DNA from: Raillietiella orientalis
Lineage: Eukaryota
Reading direction: 5' to 3'
Length of the DNA: 64,000 nucleotides
Assembly (NCBI GenBank): GCA_036172245.1
Contig: JAYWIR010000010.1
Location: 124,001 to 188,000 of the forward strand
Shown: piece by piece, positions 1 through 63,019 of the stretch
Numbering within the stretch: position 1 is the stretch's first letter
Layout: the number at the start of each line of letters is the position of its first letter
Made by a program: the position numbers and the translations under genes
Notes under the pieces: generated by a model
What the model saw: the letters and a program-made list of their open reading frames with translations, nothing else
What the model was told of the DNA's origin: nothing
Database searches by the model: none

Positions 1-1115
1 GTACCAGGTTGCTGGAAAGCCTGAAGAGCGACTTGCAGGCGGACACGAATGTGCGAAAGGCTCACCTGATGGCGGGCAGGTACGCTGGTCAGCCACTGCA
101 AGAGATCGTTTCCAACCCACGGAAACTTCTGTTCGCTTTTTTCAGTCCCCTTGCCCCGTGCTGCCCTTCCTTACAGAAGCTAGGGACAGCCAAGAGGAGG
201 CTTGTTACGAAGTGTCCTGCCTCATCGTAGGCAGGAAAAAACCAATGAAGGCGTGGACGTCCCGGGAACTAGCGGACGCTACAACCCCAAGTGTCCCGCC
301 AAGTTGTGCGCTGGGGCGAGCTGCTCGGCATGCCTCCGGAGGAGGTGAAGTGGCTCCCGGCGTATTGGGACAGTGGCACCCTACCTTTGGATTGGCAGGA
401 GACGGCGCTGCTTGTGCTCCCTTGGAGTCTTTTGAGCAGAGCGCGCTTGACTCACTGGACATTGGGGAGACTGGATGCCCATTGTACAGTGTGAGAAAAG
501 GGAGACCTTCCCCCACTTACTCATCGAATGTGTTGCCCTCCGCCGAACGTGGGATCGACTCTCGTCGGCCATAAACGTAGCGGTGGGCGACCCTAAAAAC
601 ATTTTTCGTTGCCTCTTGATGCGGAACTCCCTGCCAGGTGCCGCGTGTGTTGCAGTTCTCTGCTGCATACGAGGACTTCTGGACAAGTGGAACGCGTCGA
701 TAAGAGGCCACAGCAGTCGGAATGCCATTCACTGGGCAGTGATCTCCTTGGAGAAGGTTTGCCATTGGCGTCGACTCAAGAAACATTTGCCAGTACTTGT
801 TCGCATCCGGAACCGGATGCAGAGGCCTCCTCACGGCGTACCGTGATCCCCTCCCTTCCCCCCCCCCCCGCCCAAAGAACATTGCTCCCCCCAGCCGTTT
901 TTCTTTGTTTTATTTTTGTTTTTTCCCGCCCCTGCGCCAGTGTGGAGGACCTTATCGGCCTGAGAGTAAGGACAAGTGCCCCAATACAGGCAAAAACTTC
1001 TTAAGTGACGTAAAAAAGAAAAACATTCTTAACAAAAAAAAGACTTCATTATCGAATTTTTTCTCAATGTAAAAAATTATAATAATAAAAGCTCCGGCTC
1101 ACCCGGGTGAAAAAC
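1..1115 (+). mobile_element. 3' end of degenerate L1/Tx1-clade non-LTR retrotransposon (ORF2 C-terminus with CCHC zinc finger, 3' UTR)
   Basis: Frameshifted ORF pieces read ...LPLDWQETALLVLPWSLLSRARL..AHCTV/CEKRETFPHLLIECVALRRTWDRL, the C-x2-C...ETxxHxxxxC zinc finger of L1 ORF2. Stop at 844-846, then a C-rich/T-rich 3' UTR, AATAAA at ~1084 and a GGGTGAAAAA end. Homologous to the reverse copy at 11507-12240. Confidence 0.85.
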
Positions 1116-2307
1116 CTGATAGCGGGAGATTTGAATCTCCGCCTGCTAACAGGTGAGCCCGAAACACAAGAGAACGTGAAAGTAGGTATGGAGGCCAACC
1201 TTTTCTTCGCGAGCACACGGTGTCAGGTGCAGAGTTGTGAACATAAATGAGAGCGTGTGGAAGGCTACCCCACTTTGGGGGCGCCGGCCGGGCAGGAAAG
1301 GGAAACTAGGGCGGGGAATGGGGCCCTAGCGATCGCGGTCGAACTCCACAAGGCGTTCGACTGCGTGGACCAGGAACTTCTCTTGGAGATCCTGGGTCGC
1401 ATGGGCTTCCCTCCCTCCCTACTAGCCTACCTGCGCTCCTGCTGGCGCAGCGCCATAATCAACGCCTCTTTCAGCACTCCACAGGTGTAGGCCGTGCCGG
1501 TGCGGCGGAGCATGCGGTAGGGCGATAGCCTGAGTCCCCTGCTCTTTAGCACCTACTTTGAGTTCGTGCTCAGAGCGTACAGGGTGACTTTGGCTGCCTT
1601 GCCTAGCTCGTGCCCCGGCACGCCCGCTGTAGCTGCATACGCAGACGATCTTCTGCTGATGTTGCCCATGTCCGCCCCGGCAGCCGCAGTCGAGGATTTC
1701 TTCGATCTGCTAAGCCGTGGGACTGGACTGCAGGTAAGCAAGGCGAAGTCGTCGGTGGTAGCGGTGGGTGCGATGTGGGTTGGACGGCCTGACTGGATCC
1801 GCTTGGGGATCCCCACGGCCAGGTACCTGAAGTACCTGGGTGTCCCGTTGGGGGACTTCTGCCTCGCAGAAGCCTGGTCAGGTCGTCTCCAAAAAGTGGA
1901 GTTGGCATTCGGGCCGTTCCTGGAAGGCAAGTTCCTTCTGCCGGAACGGGCCGCGGTGTGGAACGCGTTCGCGGCTCCCATCCTACGCCCCCTGCTTTTT
2001 GTTTGCCCCGTACCCCGTGAAATGAAAAAGAACGACGGACCTACTCAACATCGCTCTGTTGGGCAGTGGGAGGCCCCGTATGCCTCTGCAAGACTTATGC
2101 GCTGTACGTCGGGATGGCGGTTTCGGCCTCCTGACGCTTAAGCGGATGGAAAATCAGCTGCGTTGGCTAACCTTGGCCATCGGGGCGAAGTACTGGAGCA
2201 CACATTGGTGCGTTCCGACCCGTCTCCTCGTCAGTCGGGTATCCAGAGCGGGAGAGCTTTCCTCTTCTGTGCCCCGGTCAGAAAATAAGATGCGGCCTTC
2301 TCGGACG
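1116..2307 (+). mobile_element. L1/Tx1-like ORF2 fragment (endonuclease remnant fused to reverse transcriptase), 5' part of the virus-interrupted copy
   Basis: In-frame LIAGDLN (APE endonuclease GDFN motif, from 1116) is followed by RT motifs ELHKAFDCVD, R*GDSLSPLLF, AYADD, GLQVSKAKS, KYLGVPLG and LCAVRRDGGFGL. Stops, frameshifts and an internal deletion are present. Confidence 0.9.
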
Positions 2308-2781
2308 ATTCAAGTACACCCGAGGAAACGCCAGGAAGACCACTATGGATAAATACTTATTCCTAAAGCAAGATGTATGCAATCTTGTAAAAAGACTGGA
2401 GCAGCCCACCTCCACAACGGTGAAAAAGTTGTAGTAGTAGAAATCACCAGAAATAATCAAGAACGCGTCCAGTACGAGTTCATCGAGTCTCTGATAAATG
2501 AAATTATATTTGATCCCAAATACCAGGGATCCATAAAATACTTCCAAACTCCACACACAGTCGTGTTCGCCAACCTGGAGCCCGAGTACACCAAACTCAG
2601 TCAAGACAGATGGGTGGTCATCGATCTGGAGATCTACTCCCACAGAAAACCAATATCCTGGACCATGGATGAACGGGGCTCTATTGTTCCTTGGCCTGTA
2701 CCTTCAAGTCCAATCACAGCTTCAGGCAAAGAACCTAAAGAGCCCACTGATGAAACTGACGATTGTAATTTATGTCAATAA
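2308..2781 (+). pseudogene. rep: Endogenous CRESS-DNA virus Rep, SF3 helicase half (nanovirus/alphasatellite-like)
   Basis: Degenerate Walker A RGNARKTT at ~2321-2345 (canonical GxxGKT), then a frameshift into ORF 2377-2781. That ORF has Walker B-like VVVVEITR, YEFIESLINEIIFDPKY, motif C PHTVVFAN and arginine finger LSQDRW, in the order and spacing typical of CRESS Rep C-termini. AATAAA overlaps the stop (2777-2782). Confidence 0.85.
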
Positions 2782-2791
2782 AAATATTTTC

Positions 2792-3316
2792 TTAATGTAA
2801 TCGAACATCTCGATTTCCTTTAAATCTGAAGTAAAACCTTTCAGTCATCCTATAAACAGGATACGTAGCCTTCATCACTTCCTCATCAGGGAACACTCCA
2901 CTCGGCCCGCCTGCCTTAAAATCGTGAGCAATGTCCTGTCCAGACATGTGCTTCAACACATGTATATGACAACTGAAAACTAGCATTGCACTCTGCAAGT
3001 CCAACGCATTTCCCTGACCTACTTCCACCCAAGAACTTCTTCGTGAAACCCATCTCTTCACATTATTCGCCACATCTTGCACTATCCAACTCTTCGTCCT
3101 CACGTAAAATCCGAGAACCTTTACACCGAAGTACCGTACGAAACGTCCAGAAGTCTCTCGAAAACCGACCATCTGCTTCTGTGTATGTTCATACTTTAAA
3201 CCTTCGAACTGATGGAAACCCTCCGGTGACGCTACTTAATTACATGTCAAACAATTTCGGTAAGATATCTTCAAACGCCCAACTCCAGCGCATAGCTGGA
3301 AGAAATAGTTGGCACG
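2792..3316 (-). pseudogene. Putative capsid gene fragment of the same endogenous CRESS virus
   Basis: Minus-strand frame converging on Rep with only 10 bp between the stops. It is open from 2792 to ~3235 and continues past one TAA (..NYFFQLCAGVGRLKISYRNCLTCN*VASPEGF..MVGFRETSGRFVRYF..FYFRFKGNRDVRLH*). Aromatic/basic C-terminus and ambisense layout fit CRESS capsids; identity is inferred from position and composition only. Confidence 0.55.
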
Positions 3317-3735
3317 TGGGCGAAGTTGAATCAGTCAATTGGTGAATCCTGGAACTGCCTGCGACCAGACATCTACATCCTCTGCACGCTGCAGAACATG
3401 CTCGAGTGTCCCGCCAGAAGCATGTGGGCGGAGACGACCTCACTGACCACGGCGCTGCCCTTCCTGAGGAGGGCGCTCGGCAACAGCCGAACACCGAGGT
3501 GGCAAGTCCCCTGGTGGATAGCGGGCAGGGAGCAGATGATGAGCGGATGGACCATGAGGGAACTGGCTGACGCTGCGACCCCACGAGGACTACAAGATGG
3601 GGGGAGTTGCTGGGCATCCACAGGAAGACCTAAAGTGGCTCCCGGTATTTACAGACACGTCTACCCTTTCCCTCGATTGGCAGGAGTCAGCGCTGCTGCT
3701 GTTGCACTGGGGTCTTCCCTACAACGCGCGCCGCC
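3317..3735 (+). mobile_element. L1/Tx1-like ORF2 continuation (3' part of the virus-interrupted copy)
   Basis: WAKLNQSIGESWNCL...GWTMRELADAATP..KWLPVF...LSLDWQESALLLLHWGL is homologous to 1-450 (WTSRELADATTP..KWLPAY..LPLDWQETALLVLPWSL). It joins 2059-2307 in frame once 2308-3316 is removed. Confidence 0.85.
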
Positions 3736-3905
3736 ATGACTTTCCACAGCGCTCAGTACTCTCTATGTTCCACAGGAGGAGCTTCTCGCCCTCACCATTC
3801 GCGGCGGGGTTAGTTCGTTGAACTGATCTGCAGAGACAGGTCTGGCTCAACGATTGTTGAAAACCCTTGTTGTGTTGGAAGGTAGGAGGCTCTCCCAATA
3901 ACAAG
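3736..3905 (-). mobile_element. Possible inverted fragment of a non-LTR ORF2 start (endonuclease N-terminus)
   Basis: KLLLWNIES resembles the xxxWNV motif that opens APE domains; short, motif-only support. Confidence 0.3.
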
Positions 3906-3914
3906 GGACCGTTC

Positions 3915-4205
3915 GGTAGTGATCCACCTTATCGGGGTGACATTCCGGATGCGGAACGATGACGTCCGAAGCAGACCCCAAGAAATCGCGACGGTTCACA
4001 CGCTGTTAACCAAGCCCTTTCCCTTCGTGGAGCACGACGGGCTTCCTACAAGCTACATGGCAGAGCCAGTAGCTGTTCGCGAGGGCTGTGGGTTGCCATG
4101 GAAGCTACAAGTAGCCGGGGAACCGGTGGACTTGTGATACGTGGAACAATCTAAGTACTGTGGCCACTGCAATTCGTCGAGTCGTTCATAGTGCCTGTCA
4201 GTGCG
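3915..4205 (+). mobile_element. L1/Tx1 ORF1 fragment with degenerate CCHC knuckle
   Basis: ..GLPWKLQVAGEPVDL*YVEQSKYCGHCNSSSRS*C matches the LPxxLxVxG..YxGQPxxCxxCxxxGHxxxxC pattern of Tx1-type ORF1. Confidence 0.55.
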
Positions 4206-4299
4206 ACGTGAGCCCGAAGGGCGGACTGGACCAGCCTGAAGATCCTCAAGGACGGGTACTTCATGTACCCGACCTTGTTCGAGTTCATGTATGCGTTCC

Positions 4300-4900
4300 G
4301 TTCGAGAACTTCTGCTTAGCAGAAGTCTAGTCCGACTGTTTCCAAAAGGTAAAGATGGCGATCGGCCCGTTCCAGAACGGCAAATTTTGCCTGCCCGAAC
4401 GAGCCGCGGTATGGAACTCGTTTGCCGCTTCCATGCTCTTCCCCCTGCGTTTTATTTGCTTCATTTCACCAGACATCCGGAAAAGAACCGAGAACTTCCT
4501 GAGGAAAGATCTTTAGGGCGCAGGAAGATCCAGAGTCAGACTCCAAGACTTGTGTGCTCCGCGTAACGATGGCAGACTGACTCCTCACGCTGGAGGGTAT
4601 GAGGAATCAGCTCCAACTCAGAAGACTCGCCCTCGCGACGAAACTGTAGAAAACGCCCTGGTGCACACCAGCACGGCTCATCGCGAAGAGCGCAACCGGC
4701 TACAAAGAACCCACATCCCTCTTCGTCGCTCGCGAGAGATTGGTGAGGAGTTGCATATACCAACTCCACTAGATAGTTACCATGGTGGAGAACATCTGGA
4801 TCTCCCACCTCCCCTTGAACTGCACTGCCTGCCCGGGCCCTTATAGATCCGGATCACCGGAAACGGGAAGATGCTGCATAGACACCTCCATCCCTCGCGG
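4300..4900 (+). mobile_element. Third L1/Tx1-like ORF2 fragment (post-RT region, uninterrupted)
   Basis: GPFQNGKFCLPERAAVWNSFAA and LQDLCAPRNDG..LLTLEGMRNQL closely parallel 1910-2160 (GPFLEGKFLLPERAAVWNAFAA; LQDLCAVRRDGG..LLTLKRMENQL). Confidence 0.8.
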
Positions 4901-22277: not shown

Positions 22278-22423
22278 CGTCTCTCAGGGAGGTCCTCTTC
22301 TGCTGGCACTTGCAGGTGATGAAGTCCCCGCGGCTGCAGTTCTTTGCCAGGGTGTGGGTCACCGCCGCCGAGGTTATGGCTTGGACGAACGCCTTCTCCT
22401 TCGTTGGCAGGCTGATCCCCTCC
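22278..22423 (-). CDS. Wnt8: Wnt8-like, exon 4 (alternative in-frame acceptor would start at 22411)
   Basis: LPTKEKAFVQAITSAAVTHTLAKNCSRGDFITCKC matches the Wnt8-type xxKNCSxGDF. GT donor at 22277 (phase 1) matches exon 5. Confidence 0.9.
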
Positions 22424-59036: not shown

Positions 59037-59551
59037 ATGGTGTCCTCGCTGATCTCCGCTTTGGTCCTGCTGCTGCCGGTGACTTCCGCCGCCAGCGTTT
59101 CGGCGGGAGACGGCGCCAGCCCTCCGGACGCGTCCGGAAGGAGCTGGGAGATGTGGCTGCGCCTCCCCACGGCCACAGTCCCGCACCGTTACGACCTGCT
59201 CATCTTCCCCAACCTCACGGGCGTGACCTTCTCCGGGCGCGTGGCCATCCAAGTCGAGATCCTGGAGGACACGGACAGCATCGTCTTGCACAGCAAGAAG
59301 CTCGACGTGCGGCAGACGCGCGTCCTGAAGAACCACCTTGGCCTGGGCGACGTCACCGGAGGGTCCGCGGAGGACCTGAGGGTCAGGAAGGCCTTTAGCT
59401 ACGAGCCCCACGACTTCTGGGTCGTCCTCCTGGAGGAACTGGCTCCCAAAGGCTCCAACTGCACCCTTTACTTCGAGTTCGAGGGCAGTCTGGACCAGGG
59501 GATACATGGATTTTACAGGAGCAGCTACAGAATGGCCAGCGGGGAAGTCAG
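59037..59551 (+). CDS. M1-family aminopeptidase (glutamyl aminopeptidase/aminopeptidase N-like), first identifiable coding exon
   Basis: Hydrophobic N-terminus, then RLPTATVPHRYDL..FSGRVAI..IVLHS..GFYRSSY; ag|gtaggt donor, phase 2. Confidence 0.93.
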
Positions 59552-61130: not shown

Positions 61131-61280
61131 GCTCCCACCTCGGGTTGTTGAGGTAACGGCTTCGAATCTTCACTTGAAGGGGCGTGGTGGTTTTTCCCAC
61201 CGGCTGCACGTCTCCCAAGGGCTGCTGAGGTCTACAGATCCAAGGGTGCGAAAGGACTGACCTCTTTATTTCTGTTGCAG

Positions 61281-61425
61281 GTATTTAGCAACGACGCAGT
61301 TCGAGCCAACAGATGCCAGAAGAGCCTTTCCGTGTTTTGACGAGCCTCTCTTCAAGGCGAAATTCAAGATCGCAGTGGTTCGCCCTTCCAGAGAATACAC
61401 CGCGCTGTCCAACATGCCCGCCGAG
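61281..61425 (+). CDS. M1 aminopeptidase, next exon
   Basis: tttctgttgcag acceptor; (R)[36 protein letters not shown] donor at 61426, phase 0. Confidence 0.96.
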
Positions 61426-63019
61426 GTAAAATTCGCTCACCAAGACAAGTCGAAACTCTGCGTGCGGTGGGTCGGCCTTCTTCGCCCCTACAAAACTGGC
61501 TTTCCAGTCGACTCTGGGCTAGGGAAGAGTCTCAGGCACCTTCACTTTTCTCTGAAACCCCTGAAAGAAAGCTCAGCCCTCTCTCGTGGCGGAGCAAAAA
61601 CGATGCTCACCGTTCCAGAACGGGGTTTTCCACTTTCTGGTTCTCCTTGGTGGCGTCAAGCAGCACGCCCTCGCGAACGCACTGGACGTTTAGTTGGTGG
61701 TCCGAAAACGTGTGTGCTGTCCGTGGGATGCATGTCGACCCCAGGCGGAAGCTGTCAAATCCAATTTGGAAATCAGGGAACAAAACTATAGAGGAACATA
61801 TCCCTTTGCGCACATCCTCACGCGGAAAATTGCCTTGAGGTCCACAATCCTTCTGTATCTCCTTTTTCTCTTGTACCATTTTTTGGACTTCGACTCTTCC
61901 AGAGCTGTCAGGAGTACCATAATAGCTAGATGGTGAGGGAGGATTGCTTTCTGGACCTGCCCTTTCATAGAAACCACGATAACGCATGTCGGTCGAAAGA
62001 AACAAAAAAAAACAGTACACGCTTTGGCTGTACACATGCTAAAATCGGAAAGAAAACAAGCTGAATTGCAAATCTGAGAGACCATTGGAAAACACACCGA
62101 CGACTGGTTTACGGCAAACGCAGACCGGAATCTCTAGAGAGAGCTGTGCCGAATGTGCATGGGGACCTCTCTTGAGGATCCGCGAAATCAATTCGCCCTC
62201 CAAACTTCTGCTTTTACTCCACAGAGATCAGCACGGTGCCTGGATGCCAGGCACGCAAAGGTGCACACAGAAAGCGCGGAATGGACCCGACTTCCTAGAG
62301 CTCACCGAACACCGCGCTGCTCTCCCGGCTTTTCTTTTCCCGTGGTCTCGTTGCTGATTTCTTTCTCCTGAAAGCGCGCACTTTTCAAAGCTCTCCGCCC
62401 TCTTGTGTTGTGCGCGTTGCTTCTGGACCCATTTCTCTGACGGACTCCAGAGATGGGTTGGGTTTGACAGCGTCCAACCCGTCAAGTTTTTCCCGCAGCC
62501 GATTCAAGCAACAGATCTCAGTGAAAGGAAATGCATGAAGCCTCTTCAATTTTTTATTAGATGGAAGGAAGTTGAAGAATTTCCTTCTTCCCCGTGGGGG
62601 GGGGGGGGAGATGCATATGTTGAGGGGGAAAGATGCACGCAGGTCTCGGGTGAGCCAGGGACGTTTTTCCATGACTTGCTCTCGATCGCCGCCTGCCCTG
62701 AAGCTGGGAAGCAGGTCGATGCAGGCTCGTGGAGTTCTGACGTGTCCTTCCGGTCTGCTTCCGGAAAGTGTCCCGGTCCAGCTCTGGAATTTTCTGGAAA
62801 GCCTCACTCCGTGCCACGGAGCGAGAGAGACCAACACTCTTGGCCGACTTTTGTTTCCCATTTTGGGGTGGGCGAGTGGACAGAAGGCACGCAGGGAAGG
62901 GGGAGCATAGGGTGCGCCCAGACGACTGCGTAGCAACACCTCGCATTTTTCGCTTTACGTGCAGCTTGGCGAGCGAGGGCCAGAGTAGCAGCATCAACGA
63001 GGTGGCATGCGTTTTCCAG

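Follow-up and report, generated by a model that had tools for sequence, protein, structure and literature searches.

Fossils of CRESS-DNA viruses in host genomes are among the few means to link these mostly metagenomic viruses to their hosts and to date them. The closest described systems fall along several lines. Dennis et al. 2019 (PMC6372831) describe CVe-Carnivora-4, circoviral elements which are embedded in LINE-1 and have been amplified in carnivores. Kinsella and van der Hoek 2023 (PMC10193959) report paired Rep-Cap endogenous viral elements (EVEs) of krikoviruses (Draupnirviridae) from snakes, lizards, turtles and insects, and Liu et al. 2011 (PMC3198968) report circovirus- and nanovirus-like Rep sequences scattered in eukaryotic genomes. 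As for the route of entry, target-site duplications (TSDs) and a 3' poly-A are given as the marks of LINE-mediated integration, and non-homologous end joining is named as the route for viral DNA that lacks both (PMC3205384).

Here we use a combination of homology searches, structure prediction and public read data to study a locus of this kind from Raillietiella orientalis, in a 64-kb stretch of DNA that we refer to as the window. The locus resembles CVe-Carnivora-4 in being a Rep fossil of a small circular ssDNA virus within a LINE of an animal genome; those elements, however, are Circovirus-like and were amplified with their LINE to 10-20 copies (PMC6372831), whereas here we see no amplification in the window or in the sequencing run that we searched. 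Like the krikovirus EVEs, it would combine a probably non-circovirus Rep with an adjacent opposed frame, integrated together as a piece of viral genome and now carrying stops and frameshifts, but the krikovirus Cap-like EVEs are circovirus-like by HHpred (PMC10193959) and the opposed frame studied here matches nothing searched. With the elements of Liu et al. 2011 (PMC3198968) it shares a fragmentary Rep of an undescribed CRESS lineage in an animal genome, and it differs from them as a new locus and sequence with a best identity of 38-49%. Finally, it is like the EBLN type of bornavirus-derived element in that virus-derived sequence is associated with LINE activity; that type carries a 3' poly-A and TSDs (PMC3205384), while in our case both are absent and the piece is not a single mRNA.

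Results

Composition and borders of the insert

The features of the locus are collected in Table 1. In 300-nt windows, GC is 0.40-0.47 across 2251-3300, compared with 0.59-0.62 in 1351-2250 on the left and 0.60-0.62 in 3301-3750 on the right, which bears out the AT-richer block of about 1009 bp that an earlier note on this DNA had picked out at 2308-3316. The trinucleotide ACG, which the same note placed at both borders, is indeed read there directly (2305-2307 and 3314-3316), and represents a microhomology or else a duplication of 3 nt. Within these three bases the position of the breakpoint is ambiguous. By direct reading, no run of A or T (poly-A) is present at either end of the insert and no target duplication longer than ACG is found at its borders; the marks of a retro-insertion, a 3' poly-A together with a target-site duplication of several bases, are absent from the insert.

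Table 1. Coordinates of the features at the locus (positions in the window).
Feature	Position	Strand	Details
LINE ORF2 left part, RT-domain end and region after	1188..2307	+	tblastn to P0151, Pfam RVT_1
ACG, left border	2305..2307	.	second ACG at 3314-3316; direct reading
Left arm of inverted match	2307..2321	.	12/15 with 3318-3332
Viral insert (endogenous viral element)	2308..3316	.	1009 bp; composition and Rep homology
Rep fragment, first frame, Walker A region	2309..2380	+	Rep profile match; GNARKTT
Rep fragment, second frame	2365..2781	+	Walker B, motif C, KLSQDRW block, non-conserved tail, TAA at 2779-2781
Spacer between opposed stop codons	2782..2791	.	10 nt
Convergent frame	2792..3316	-	stop-free 2795-3235 (147 codons); in-frame stop 3236-3238; runs to right border
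LINE ORF2 right part, C-terminal region	3317..3821	+	open frame 3296-3739; in phase with left part once 2308-3316 is removed
Uninterrupted LINE paralogue spanning equivalent insertion site	4181..4829	+	tblastx, P0151 match

Taken together with the homology described below, the evidence supports the view that the insert is a piece of a CRESS-DNA virus Rep, embedded in LINE ORF2-derived sequence and endogenous: LINE sequence flanks it on both sides, and the viral frames carry disabling changes (Rep has a frameshift, the opposed frame a stop). As such, the locus is an ordinary kind of viral fossil. ERAP1-like and Wnt8-like exons neighbour it.

The Rep helicase fragment

The four helicase peptide strings on which the earlier note based its reading are all present in translated frames: GNARKTT lies at 2324-2344 in the open frame 2171-2434, and VVVVEITR (2428-2451), VVFAN (2560-2574) and LSQDRW (2596-2613) all lie in the open frame 2353-2781. 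The Walker A, Walker B and motif C elements of an SF3 helicase can all be recognised, in degenerate form, with Arg at the P-loop glycine position of GNARKTT, Glu in place of Asp in Walker B (VVVVE), and VVFAN as motif C. A homology check of 2308-2781 against CRESS Reps, which that note had proposed, finds relatives in number. A phmmer search with the 142-aa frame against 1.84 billion representatives returns 2776 matches at E<=1e-3 (205 of them at E<=1e-10), and a profile of 25 of the phmmer matches scores the frame in the window with E 6.1e-39 over profile positions 208-305 (hmmsearch). The first-frame stretch TRGNARKTTMDKYLFLKQDVC aligns to profile positions 190-210 (E 0.024 at Z=6, weak when taken alone), and this Walker A stretch is collinear with the strong second-frame match although it lies in a different frame. 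The Rep piece is split over two frames, with a frameshift somewhere around 2365-2385. The nanovirus-like SF3 helicase block of the earlier note accordingly holds as a set of CRESS Rep helicase motifs, but these occupy two frames and not one.

Only part of a Rep is present. When 12 of the top matches were scanned, PF02407 (Viral_Rep) was found in 10, above the cut-off in 9 of these, and PF00910 in 4. In the window, six-frame matches between 2150 and 3450 never fall below profile position 176, and Pfam finds no HUH endonuclease. Because the HUH half is absent here though it is found in 10 of the 12 relatives, the window holds a truncated Rep fragment and not a whole Rep; on sequence grounds, this fragment is the C-terminal SF3-helicase half of the protein, pseudogenised. 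The fragment itself is not scored by Pfam, PF00910 included. Of 9 matches in the window to an origin-like nonanucleotide (a loose pattern), none falls in 2308-3316, and no origin-like hairpin is found among 5 inverted pairs; the lack of an origin motif would follow if the captured piece left out the 5' intergenic region.

The closest sampled relatives share 38-49% identity with the fragment over about 80 residues. The two nearest that carry a name are hypothetical proteins of the snail Batillaria attramentaria (P0002 and P0019), and virus names are missing from the 26 clusters looked up, where besides the snail proteins there are a MAG label and bare 'hypothetical protein' entries. A word-indexed search for longer relatives of the fragment gives none at E<=1e-5. 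The sole match of an IMG/VR scan with the single fragment, a phage locus (L001) hit through a low-complexity KEPKEPTD stretch, was rejected. Against the PDB, phmmer with the fragment finds no Rep chain at E<=10, PCV2 Rep included. The profile of the relatives does find the PCV2 and nanovirus Rep structures there, through the N-terminal endonuclease domain only, which is also all that the nanovirus entries 2hwt and 6h8o cover. Judged by these comparisons of protein sequence, the helicase fragment is probably not close to circoviruses.

An AF2 model of the fragment (alignment A1) reaches pLDDT 78. No Foldseek match to this model reaches E<=0.001, and the weak ones that head the list are RuvB, papillomavirus E1, AAV Rep40, PCV2 Rep ATPase and picornavirus 2C, the PCV2 ATPase domain standing at rank 22 (E 0.37). 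VIA-align gives generic P-loop/AAA+/MCM-type cores only (Z 5-6), and in the ESM Atlas the fragment has leads to Parvo_NS1 and RNA_helicase clusters, all below 0.9. The structural matches of the predicted model are consistent with a P-loop core and are not discriminating.

The convergent minus-strand frame

The convergent minus-strand ORF described in the earlier note exists, open over 2792-3235. When 2782-3316 is shuffled with its dinucleotides preserved, 15 of 2000 shuffles contain a stop-free run of this length, and over the 175 codons of the extended frame there are 2 stops, including the terminal one. Among 24 related CRESS contigs from IMG/VR, 19 have their largest other ORF opposed to Rep and converging on its 3' end; 3 of these 19 ambisense genomes have a spacer of 3-21 nt, and in the others it reaches up to about 390 nt.

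The same note had labelled this frame a putative Cap, a label that neither homology nor fold backs. We find no Pfam family at E<=1, no relatives in a word-indexed search, no usable match in the ESM Atlas and no match in an IMG/VR scan with the frame; phmmer against 933 ORFs of 77 related IMG/VR loci gives a best E of 3, and jackhmmer runs started from 191 candidate ORFs never recruit it. Structure prediction, also proposed in the note, yields an AF2 single-sequence model with pLDDT 34.7 and no usable fold. What speaks for the label is position and ORF length, and from its position the frame may represent the C-terminal portion of a second viral gene, that for the capsid. We also considered the frame as a second, inverted piece of Rep, on the strength of a collinear-looking alignment (W-x19-W-x5-GN ... 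DIAH), and rejected this reading since the alignment falls short of significance: E is 0.24 at Z=6, a 92-sequence profile gives 0.12 at Z=1, and hhalign assigns a probability of 0.4%.

The LINE flanks

The left flank is clearly LINE ORF2, up to residue 545 of P0151, a 619-aa protein which carries PF00078 and is the only database relative of the LINE. By tblastn, 1188-2015 corresponds to P0151 residues 178-452 with 66% identity (E 2.7e-111), and 1978-2292, in another frame, to residues 440-545 with 52% (E 1.3e-24). Pfam RVT_1 (PF00078) is found on this flank with E 3.4e-6, just under its cut-off (27.4 bits vs 29.6), and an identity of 66-73% to P0151 together with PF00078 marks the flank as carrying a reverse-transcriptase domain. 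The copy is decayed and 5'-truncated at about P0151 residue 178. A metagenome scan with the left flank produced a 12-residue chance match in a GC-rich 1.2-Mb contig (L079), which we discarded, and left P0151's own contig unrecovered.

On the right, 3455-3731 is homologous to a LINE 3' fragment at 161-446 (tblastx E 4.9e-23; 63% nucleotide identity over 292 nt). Deleting exactly 2308-3316 does give the in-frame L1 peptide that the earlier note had read: 2026-2307 and 3317-3739 are joined in phase into a 235-codon open frame. The paralogue shows what an uninterrupted copy looks like, since tblastx matches 1748-2295 to 4181-4748 and P0151 residues 392-574 match 4286-4829 in two frames without an insert. 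The note's count of 30 residues across the junction, against 31 in the paralogue, is correct as counted, and by hand count the HWC...W-x3-(R/L)-P anchors are 47 residues apart here, 48 in the paralogue and 49 in P0151. Alignments of the right flank to the paralogue and to P0151 are at chance level, with 1246 and 1162 of 2000 shuffles, respectively, reaching their score, and the first 60 right-flank residues have no significant alignment to either. Neither the C-terminus of P0151 nor the sequence downstream of the paralogue could be aligned with the right flank.

The proposal that almost no L1 sequence was lost therefore draws on frame phase, the spacing of short anchors and overall ORF2 size; the phase and the 30/31 spacing agree with it, but the right-flank alignment is no better than chance. 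Likewise, a clean insertion within one L1 ORF2 is borne out by the left flank and the phase, while contiguity on the right hangs on statistically unsupported anchors. Because the first 60 residues of the right flank lack a significant alignment, the continuity of one LINE copy across the insert is something that we infer. One could instead imagine that separate LINE fragments, brought together by two insertions or a rearrangement, flank an older viral fossil and that there never was a single continuous copy. At least three decayed LINE fragments, all on the same strand, are piled up within 1-4830, which makes a juxtaposition of unrelated fragments plausible, and the poor alignability of the start of the right flank points the same way. 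Such fragments would, however, have to lie not only on the same strand but also in the same phase once exactly 1009 nt are removed, with anchors spaced within 1-2 residues of two references. Moreover, without the insert the YADD motif is about 380 residues from the Cys/His-rich tail, an ordinary distance for an L1-type ORF2 (as judged from human L1). We consider this explanation unlikely.

Read evidence and copy number

The read data come from one public low-coverage DNA run (run X1), which is possibly the source data of the assembly itself and so may not be independent of it. Among its contigs, 17 match the locus: 3, identical to it (depth 2-4.3), touch the insert, and 14 are drawn by the L1 flanks, 90-95% alike and with a summed depth of up to about 34. 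Diverged copies of the insert or variant joints are not found among the contigs of this run. Of the two junctions, the right one is bridged by a 151-nt contig (record 8) that covers 3231-3381 with 0 differences and extends 86 and 65 nt on either side. The left junction has no contig cover, 2228-2409 and 2683-3046 being bare in this low-coverage run, and the reads across both junctions for which the earlier note had called are accordingly found on the right only. By blastn and tblastx there is no second copy of the insert in the window. From these two sources, one low-coverage run and one 64-kb window, the insert would be single-copy.

Origin of the insert

The reading that we favour, with a probability of roughly 0.7, is that a piece of a virus genome was end-joined as DNA into a pre-existing, 5'-truncated LINE copy and is now dead. 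The captured piece would run from just before the Rep Walker A to the Rep stop codon and then cross the 10-nt spacer into the 3' two-thirds of the opposed frame, which would most simply be the virus's second (capsid) gene; the endonuclease half of Rep, the replication origin and the 5' part of the second gene would never have been captured, or would have been lost. Most likely, a linear double-stranded fragment of viral DNA was ligated into a chromosomal double-strand break. This break would have fallen in the post-RT part of ORF2 of a LINE copy that was already inserted and already 5'-truncated, and its repair would have proceeded by non-homologous or microhomology-mediated end joining, with the 3 nt of ACG, as overlap or duplication, for its only trace apart perhaps from a short stretch of inverted templated filler at the left junction. 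The frameshift and P-loop substitution in Rep and the stop in the opposed frame would have left the piece dead. In this account we infer the repair pathway, the identity of the capsid gene, the union of both flanks in one LINE copy and the single-copy status. The fragment could also derive from an older EVE locus rather than straight from a virus.

Of the two mechanisms put forward in the earlier note, it is end joining into an existing copy that fits better: the flanks keep their phase, poly-A and any TSD longer than 3 nt are missing, and the piece reaches across the 3' ends of a pair of opposed frames, as expected of genomic viral DNA. The other mechanism, in which the LINE's reverse transcriptase left its L1 RNA for viral nucleic acid and then returned to it while the copy was being made, is quite unlikely. 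LINE reverse transcriptases do switch templates, the chimera does sit within a LINE copy, and a microhomology like ACG at the borders resembles the overlaps seen at template switches. Nevertheless, it would take two switches, the second landing in phase on the very next nucleotide of L1, and a molecule that reads Rep in sense and the opposed frame in antisense across their 3' ends is no normal viral mRNA. In addition, the paralogue and P0151 are without the insert, and run X1 holds no diverged insert copies despite the multi-copy L1 family.

Another explanation is a mobilised chimera, in which the LINE with its viral piece was itself copied so that the same junctions would recur at many loci. 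There is a precedent in the circoviral elements embedded in LINE-1, present in 10-20 copies (PMC6372831), and the L1 family here is repetitive, as the 14 flank contigs and their summed depth indicate. The insert does not follow the family in this respect: a second copy is lacking within the 64 kb, and the few contigs that touch the insert (3 of 17) are all identical and low in depth, with no joint or variant among them. Since the insert shifts the ORF2 frame and the copy is 5'-truncated, it could move only in trans. We regard this explanation as very improbable, and the earlier note's suggestion of a LINE carrying ssDNA-virus cargo finds no backing in the window or the run.

The borders hold one more detail: right at the two junctions, the first bases of the insert (2307-2321) and the start of the right flank (3318-3332) form an unexpected inverted match at 12 of 15 positions. 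Among 4000 pairs of positions drawn at random at a distance of 1009 nt, 3 do as well. This match was noticed post hoc, and it may be a repair scar (templated filler), a pair of imperfect terminal repeats, or chance. Taken as terminal inverted repeats (TIRs), it would suggest a DNA element at 2307-3332 that had captured a Rep fragment and transposed into the LINE, and a geminivirus-like fungal transposon with TIRs and without a TSD has been published (PMC3198968). The boundary that the match implies, however, leaves the LINE flanks out of phase: removing 2307-3332 breaks the phase that removing 2308-3316 keeps. The absence of a TSD, of a transposase and of further copies in the window or in run X1 likewise counts against a transposed element, to which we assign only a slight chance. 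The bold reading of the match, under end joining of viral DNA, is that it is templated filler, in which case polymerase-theta-type end joining would have left a legible scar where the virus integrated. Lastly, an assembly chimera of host DNA and exogenous virus reads, which would account for the sharp change of composition at the borders and the uncovered left junction, is scarcely credible, given that the viral genes are truncated and broken, the flanks are mutually in phase and a contig crosses the right junction without a difference.

Discussion

The idea of a LINE that ferries viral cargo is not shown by this locus, and it is already in print for circovirus fossils in LINE-1 (PMC6372831). 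What the locus adds is a Rep fragment only 38-49% identical to anything sampled, next to an orphan candidate capsid frame, with clean borders that make the mechanism of integration readable. Its use is as a datable marker if orthologous loci are compared, and not as a new principle. Tentatively, and with less confidence than for the integration of viral DNA by end joining, the insert may be the fossil of an unsampled, non-circovirus lineage of cressdnaviruses from an animal germ line, with the 175-codon opposed frame as the remnant of a capsid gene without relatives in the collections searched. If this were true, the locus would tie to a host a lineage that is otherwise known from metagenomes alone, and would preserve an otherwise unknown type of capsid.

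A Rep helicase fragment in the AT-rich insert

Searched exhaustively with phmmer against 1.84 billion representatives, the 142-aa plus-strand frame of the 1009-bp insert (2308-3316) returns 2776 proteins at E<=1e-3 and 205 at E<=1e-10 (best E 1.7e-33), with alignments falling on the C-terminal third of proteins of ~300 aa. When twelve top matches are scanned, the HUH endonuclease family PF02407 is listed in ten (above the Pfam cut-off in nine) and PF00910 RNA_helicase in four. A Rep profile built from 25 of the phmmer matches, with the window sequence left out, matches the frame along its positions 208-305 at E 6.1e-39 and places TRGNARKTTMDKYLFLKQDVC, which lies in the other frame, at positions 190-210, the Walker A region. 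Given these relatives, the profile match and the Walker A placement, we identify the plus strand of the insert, by homology, as the helicase half of a CRESS-DNA-virus replication protein (Rep) split over two frames, with a frameshift somewhere in ~2365-2385. The SF3 helicase motifs read by eye in the earlier note are thus genuine, but they are spread over two frames. The P-loop carries Arg at a conserved Gly position and Walker B carries Glu at the Asp position.

Pfam and a direct PDB sequence search give no match to the Rep fragment, and the endonuclease part of the profile is unmatched in all six frames of 2150-3450. A loose pattern for the origin nonanucleotide matches nine times in the window and not at all in the insert. 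Structure adds little to the Rep call: a model of the fragment built with an alignment (pLDDT 78) has generic P-loop/AAA+ cores as neighbours (Z 5-6), and SF3 helicases appear among its Foldseek matches only as weak ones. Within the Rep frame, its non-conserved C-terminal tail holds an imperfect 28-nt inverted repeat (2676-2745, 75% complementary, 14-nt loop).

The nearest relatives are 38-49% identical over ~80 residues and come mostly from unnamed metagenomic contigs of 1.7-3.9 kb. The helicase appears not to be close to those of circoviruses, since the fragment does not match PCV2 Rep (in PDB) at E<=10 and the profile of its relatives reaches PCV2 Rep through the endonuclease domain only. 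Two named relatives, P0002 and P0019, are hypothetical proteins from a snail, Batillaria attramentaria, and presumably fossils too. The predicted protein P0002 (KAG5709282.1) has at its C-terminus a Rep helicase fragment that shares 46% identity with that of the window, and its N-terminus, which has no Pfam family at E<=0.001, resembles by eye a retroelement reverse transcriptase (RT) with a tandem repeat; it is possibly another Rep fossil beside a retroelement. The best match, P0001 (MCK5919361.1, 354 aa, labelled a Methylococcales MAG), has two tandem Rep helicase segments without the endonuclease domain. Its 3.9-kb contig is binned with bacteria; the gene looks like a fragment of CRESS or eukaryotic origin that has been rearranged, and not like a bacterial one.

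Features of the window, with position and strand
Feature	Position	Strand	Remarks
LINE 3' fragment	~2-850	same as other LINE fragments	then low-complexity runs rich in C/T and in A, 850-1090
Interrupted LINE copy	1188-3821	same as neighbours	middle of the LINE pile
Plus-strand frame A	2171-2434	+	carries GNARKTT
Plus-strand frame B	2353-2781	+	carries VVVVEITR, VVFAN, LSQDRW; TAA stop 2779-2781; overlaps frame A
Opposed frame	stop end 2792-2794; open 147 codons to 3235	-	ends ten bases past Rep-frame stop
LINE paralogue	4181-4829	same as neighbours	last of the LINE pile
Wnt-family exon	~22285-22410	-	PF00110, E 1.6e-8; best PDB match Xenopus Wnt-8
M1 aminopeptidase, two exons	~59178-59546, ~61279-61464	+	Peptidase_M1_N, E 1e-14 and 1e-18

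The opposed frame as a candidate capsid gene

The minus-strand frame lies where a CRESS genome would predict it: of 24 related IMG/VR contigs, 19 have their largest other ORF opposite in strand and converging on the Rep 3' end, with a spacer of 3-21 nt in three and up to ~390 nt in the rest of these. It is longer than chance readily gives (15 of 2000 dinucleotide shuffles of 2782-3316 attain its stop-free run), and in the same phase it reaches the right border of the insert past a single stop (3236-3238). This much of the proposed 'putative Cap' stands, but homology and fold contribute nothing to it. Pfam gives no family at E<=1, a word-indexed search finds none among 5.8 billion proteins, ESM Atlas has no usable match, an IMG/VR scan returns none, phmmer against 933 ORFs from 77 related loci gives a best E of 3, and jackhmmer started from each of 191 non-Rep ORFs of at least 180 aa never recruits the frame; the AF2 model without alignment has pLDDT 34.7. 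'Cap' is therefore a name taken from the layout, from position and ORF length, and we hold it at roughly even odds. A collinear resemblance to a Rep segment near Walker A was rejected as non-significant (E 0.24 and 0.12, with an hhalign probability of 0.4%).

A probable interrupted LINE copy

The block is AT-richer, as first described, with GC of 0.40-0.47 in 300-nt windows over 2251-3300 against 0.59-0.62 to the left (1351-2250) and 0.60-0.62 to the right (3301-3750), and ACG does occur at both borders (2305-2307 and 3314-3316). To its left, the sole relative from a word-indexed search is P0151, an RT-bearing protein of 619 aa encoded on a metagenome contig, whose residues 178-452 match 1188-2015 (66% identity, E 2.7e-111) and whose residues 440-545 align with 1978-2292; by this similarity the left flank is LINE ORF2. 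The paralogue has no insert and is collinear both with P0151 residues 392-574 and with the left flank. On the right, 3455-3731 resembles the LINE 3' fragment at 161-446 (tblastx E 4.9e-23).

The earlier note held that deleting the block gives an in-frame L1 peptide. Excising exactly 2308-3316 does bring frames 2026-2307 and 3317-3739 into phase, giving 235 open codons, and the distance from HWC to W-x3-(R/L)-P, counted by hand, comes to 47 residues in this copy, against 48 for the paralogue and 49 for P0151. The start of the right flank is less helpful: the score of its first 60 residues against two references (P0151 and the paralogue) is equalled by 1246 and 1162 of 2000 shuffles. The region downstream of the paralogue showed no similarity to the right flank. 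We put the probability that the insert sits in one interrupted LINE copy at about four in five. The stretch 1-4830 contains a head-to-tail series of at least three decayed LINE fragments, all on one strand.

Route of integration

The insert covers the Rep sense strand and the antisense of the next gene, across both 3' ends, with neither an A or T run at its ends nor a duplication beyond ACG. According to PMC3205384, poly-A and a target-site duplication (TSD) mark LINE-mediated retro-insertion, and viral DNA without them is accepted to enter by end joining at a double-strand break. Of the two routes proposed earlier, end joining into an existing copy is the likely one, on account of the two-gene span, the missing poly-A and TSD beyond ACG, and the demands of the other: in template jumping, the LINE RT would have to exit and re-enter the L1 template at adjacent bases. 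A linear double-stranded fragment of viral DNA would have been ligated into a break in the LINE copy.

The left end of the insert (2307-2321) is complementary at 12 of 15 positions, inverted, to the bases with which the right flank opens (3318-3332), and profile-detectable Rep homology begins only at ~2318. Among 4000 pairs of positions drawn at random at a spacing of 1009 nt, only 3 equal this match. It may be filler that was templated during microhomology-mediated repair. It may also be chance, for it was found post hoc. It may, finally, mark the imperfect terminal repeats of an element of 1026 bp, but that boundary leaves the LINE flanks out of phase.

Endogenous state and published parallels

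One public DNA run (X1) shares 23% of the sampled words, and 17 of its contigs are placed on 1500-4200. Three are at least 99% alike (2449-2599, 3085-3235 and 3231-3381; no differences, depth 2-4.3), the last spanning the right junction and extending 86 and 65 nt beyond it on either side, which is limited support as the run is possibly the assembly's own data; the left junction has no contig cover. The remaining 14 are 90-95% alike and confined to the L1 parts, where their summed depth reaches ~34. We conclude that the locus is an endogenous CRESS-DNA-virus fragment within a LINE copy. The further suggestion of a LINE carrying viral cargo is unsupported: blastn and tblastx find no second copy of the insert in the 64-kb window, and no spread is seen. 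Among neighbouring host exons, the first M1 aminopeptidase exon opens with what resembles a signal peptide, and its best relative of solved structure is human ERAP1 (E 1.1e-16). From the Wnt and M1 aminopeptidase exons the analysis took the host to be an animal, and inferred that it is probably a vertebrate.

In the literature, Rep fossils left by undescribed CRESS lineages occur widely among eukaryotes (PMC3198968), paired Rep-Cap fossils of the Draupnirviridae/Krikovirus lineage occur in reptiles and insects (PMC10193959), and carnivore circovirus fossils embedded in LINE-1 were amplified together with it (PMC6372831); for the insert described here no amplification is seen in the window or in run X1. 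Set against these sources, the locus is a further case of a kind already published.
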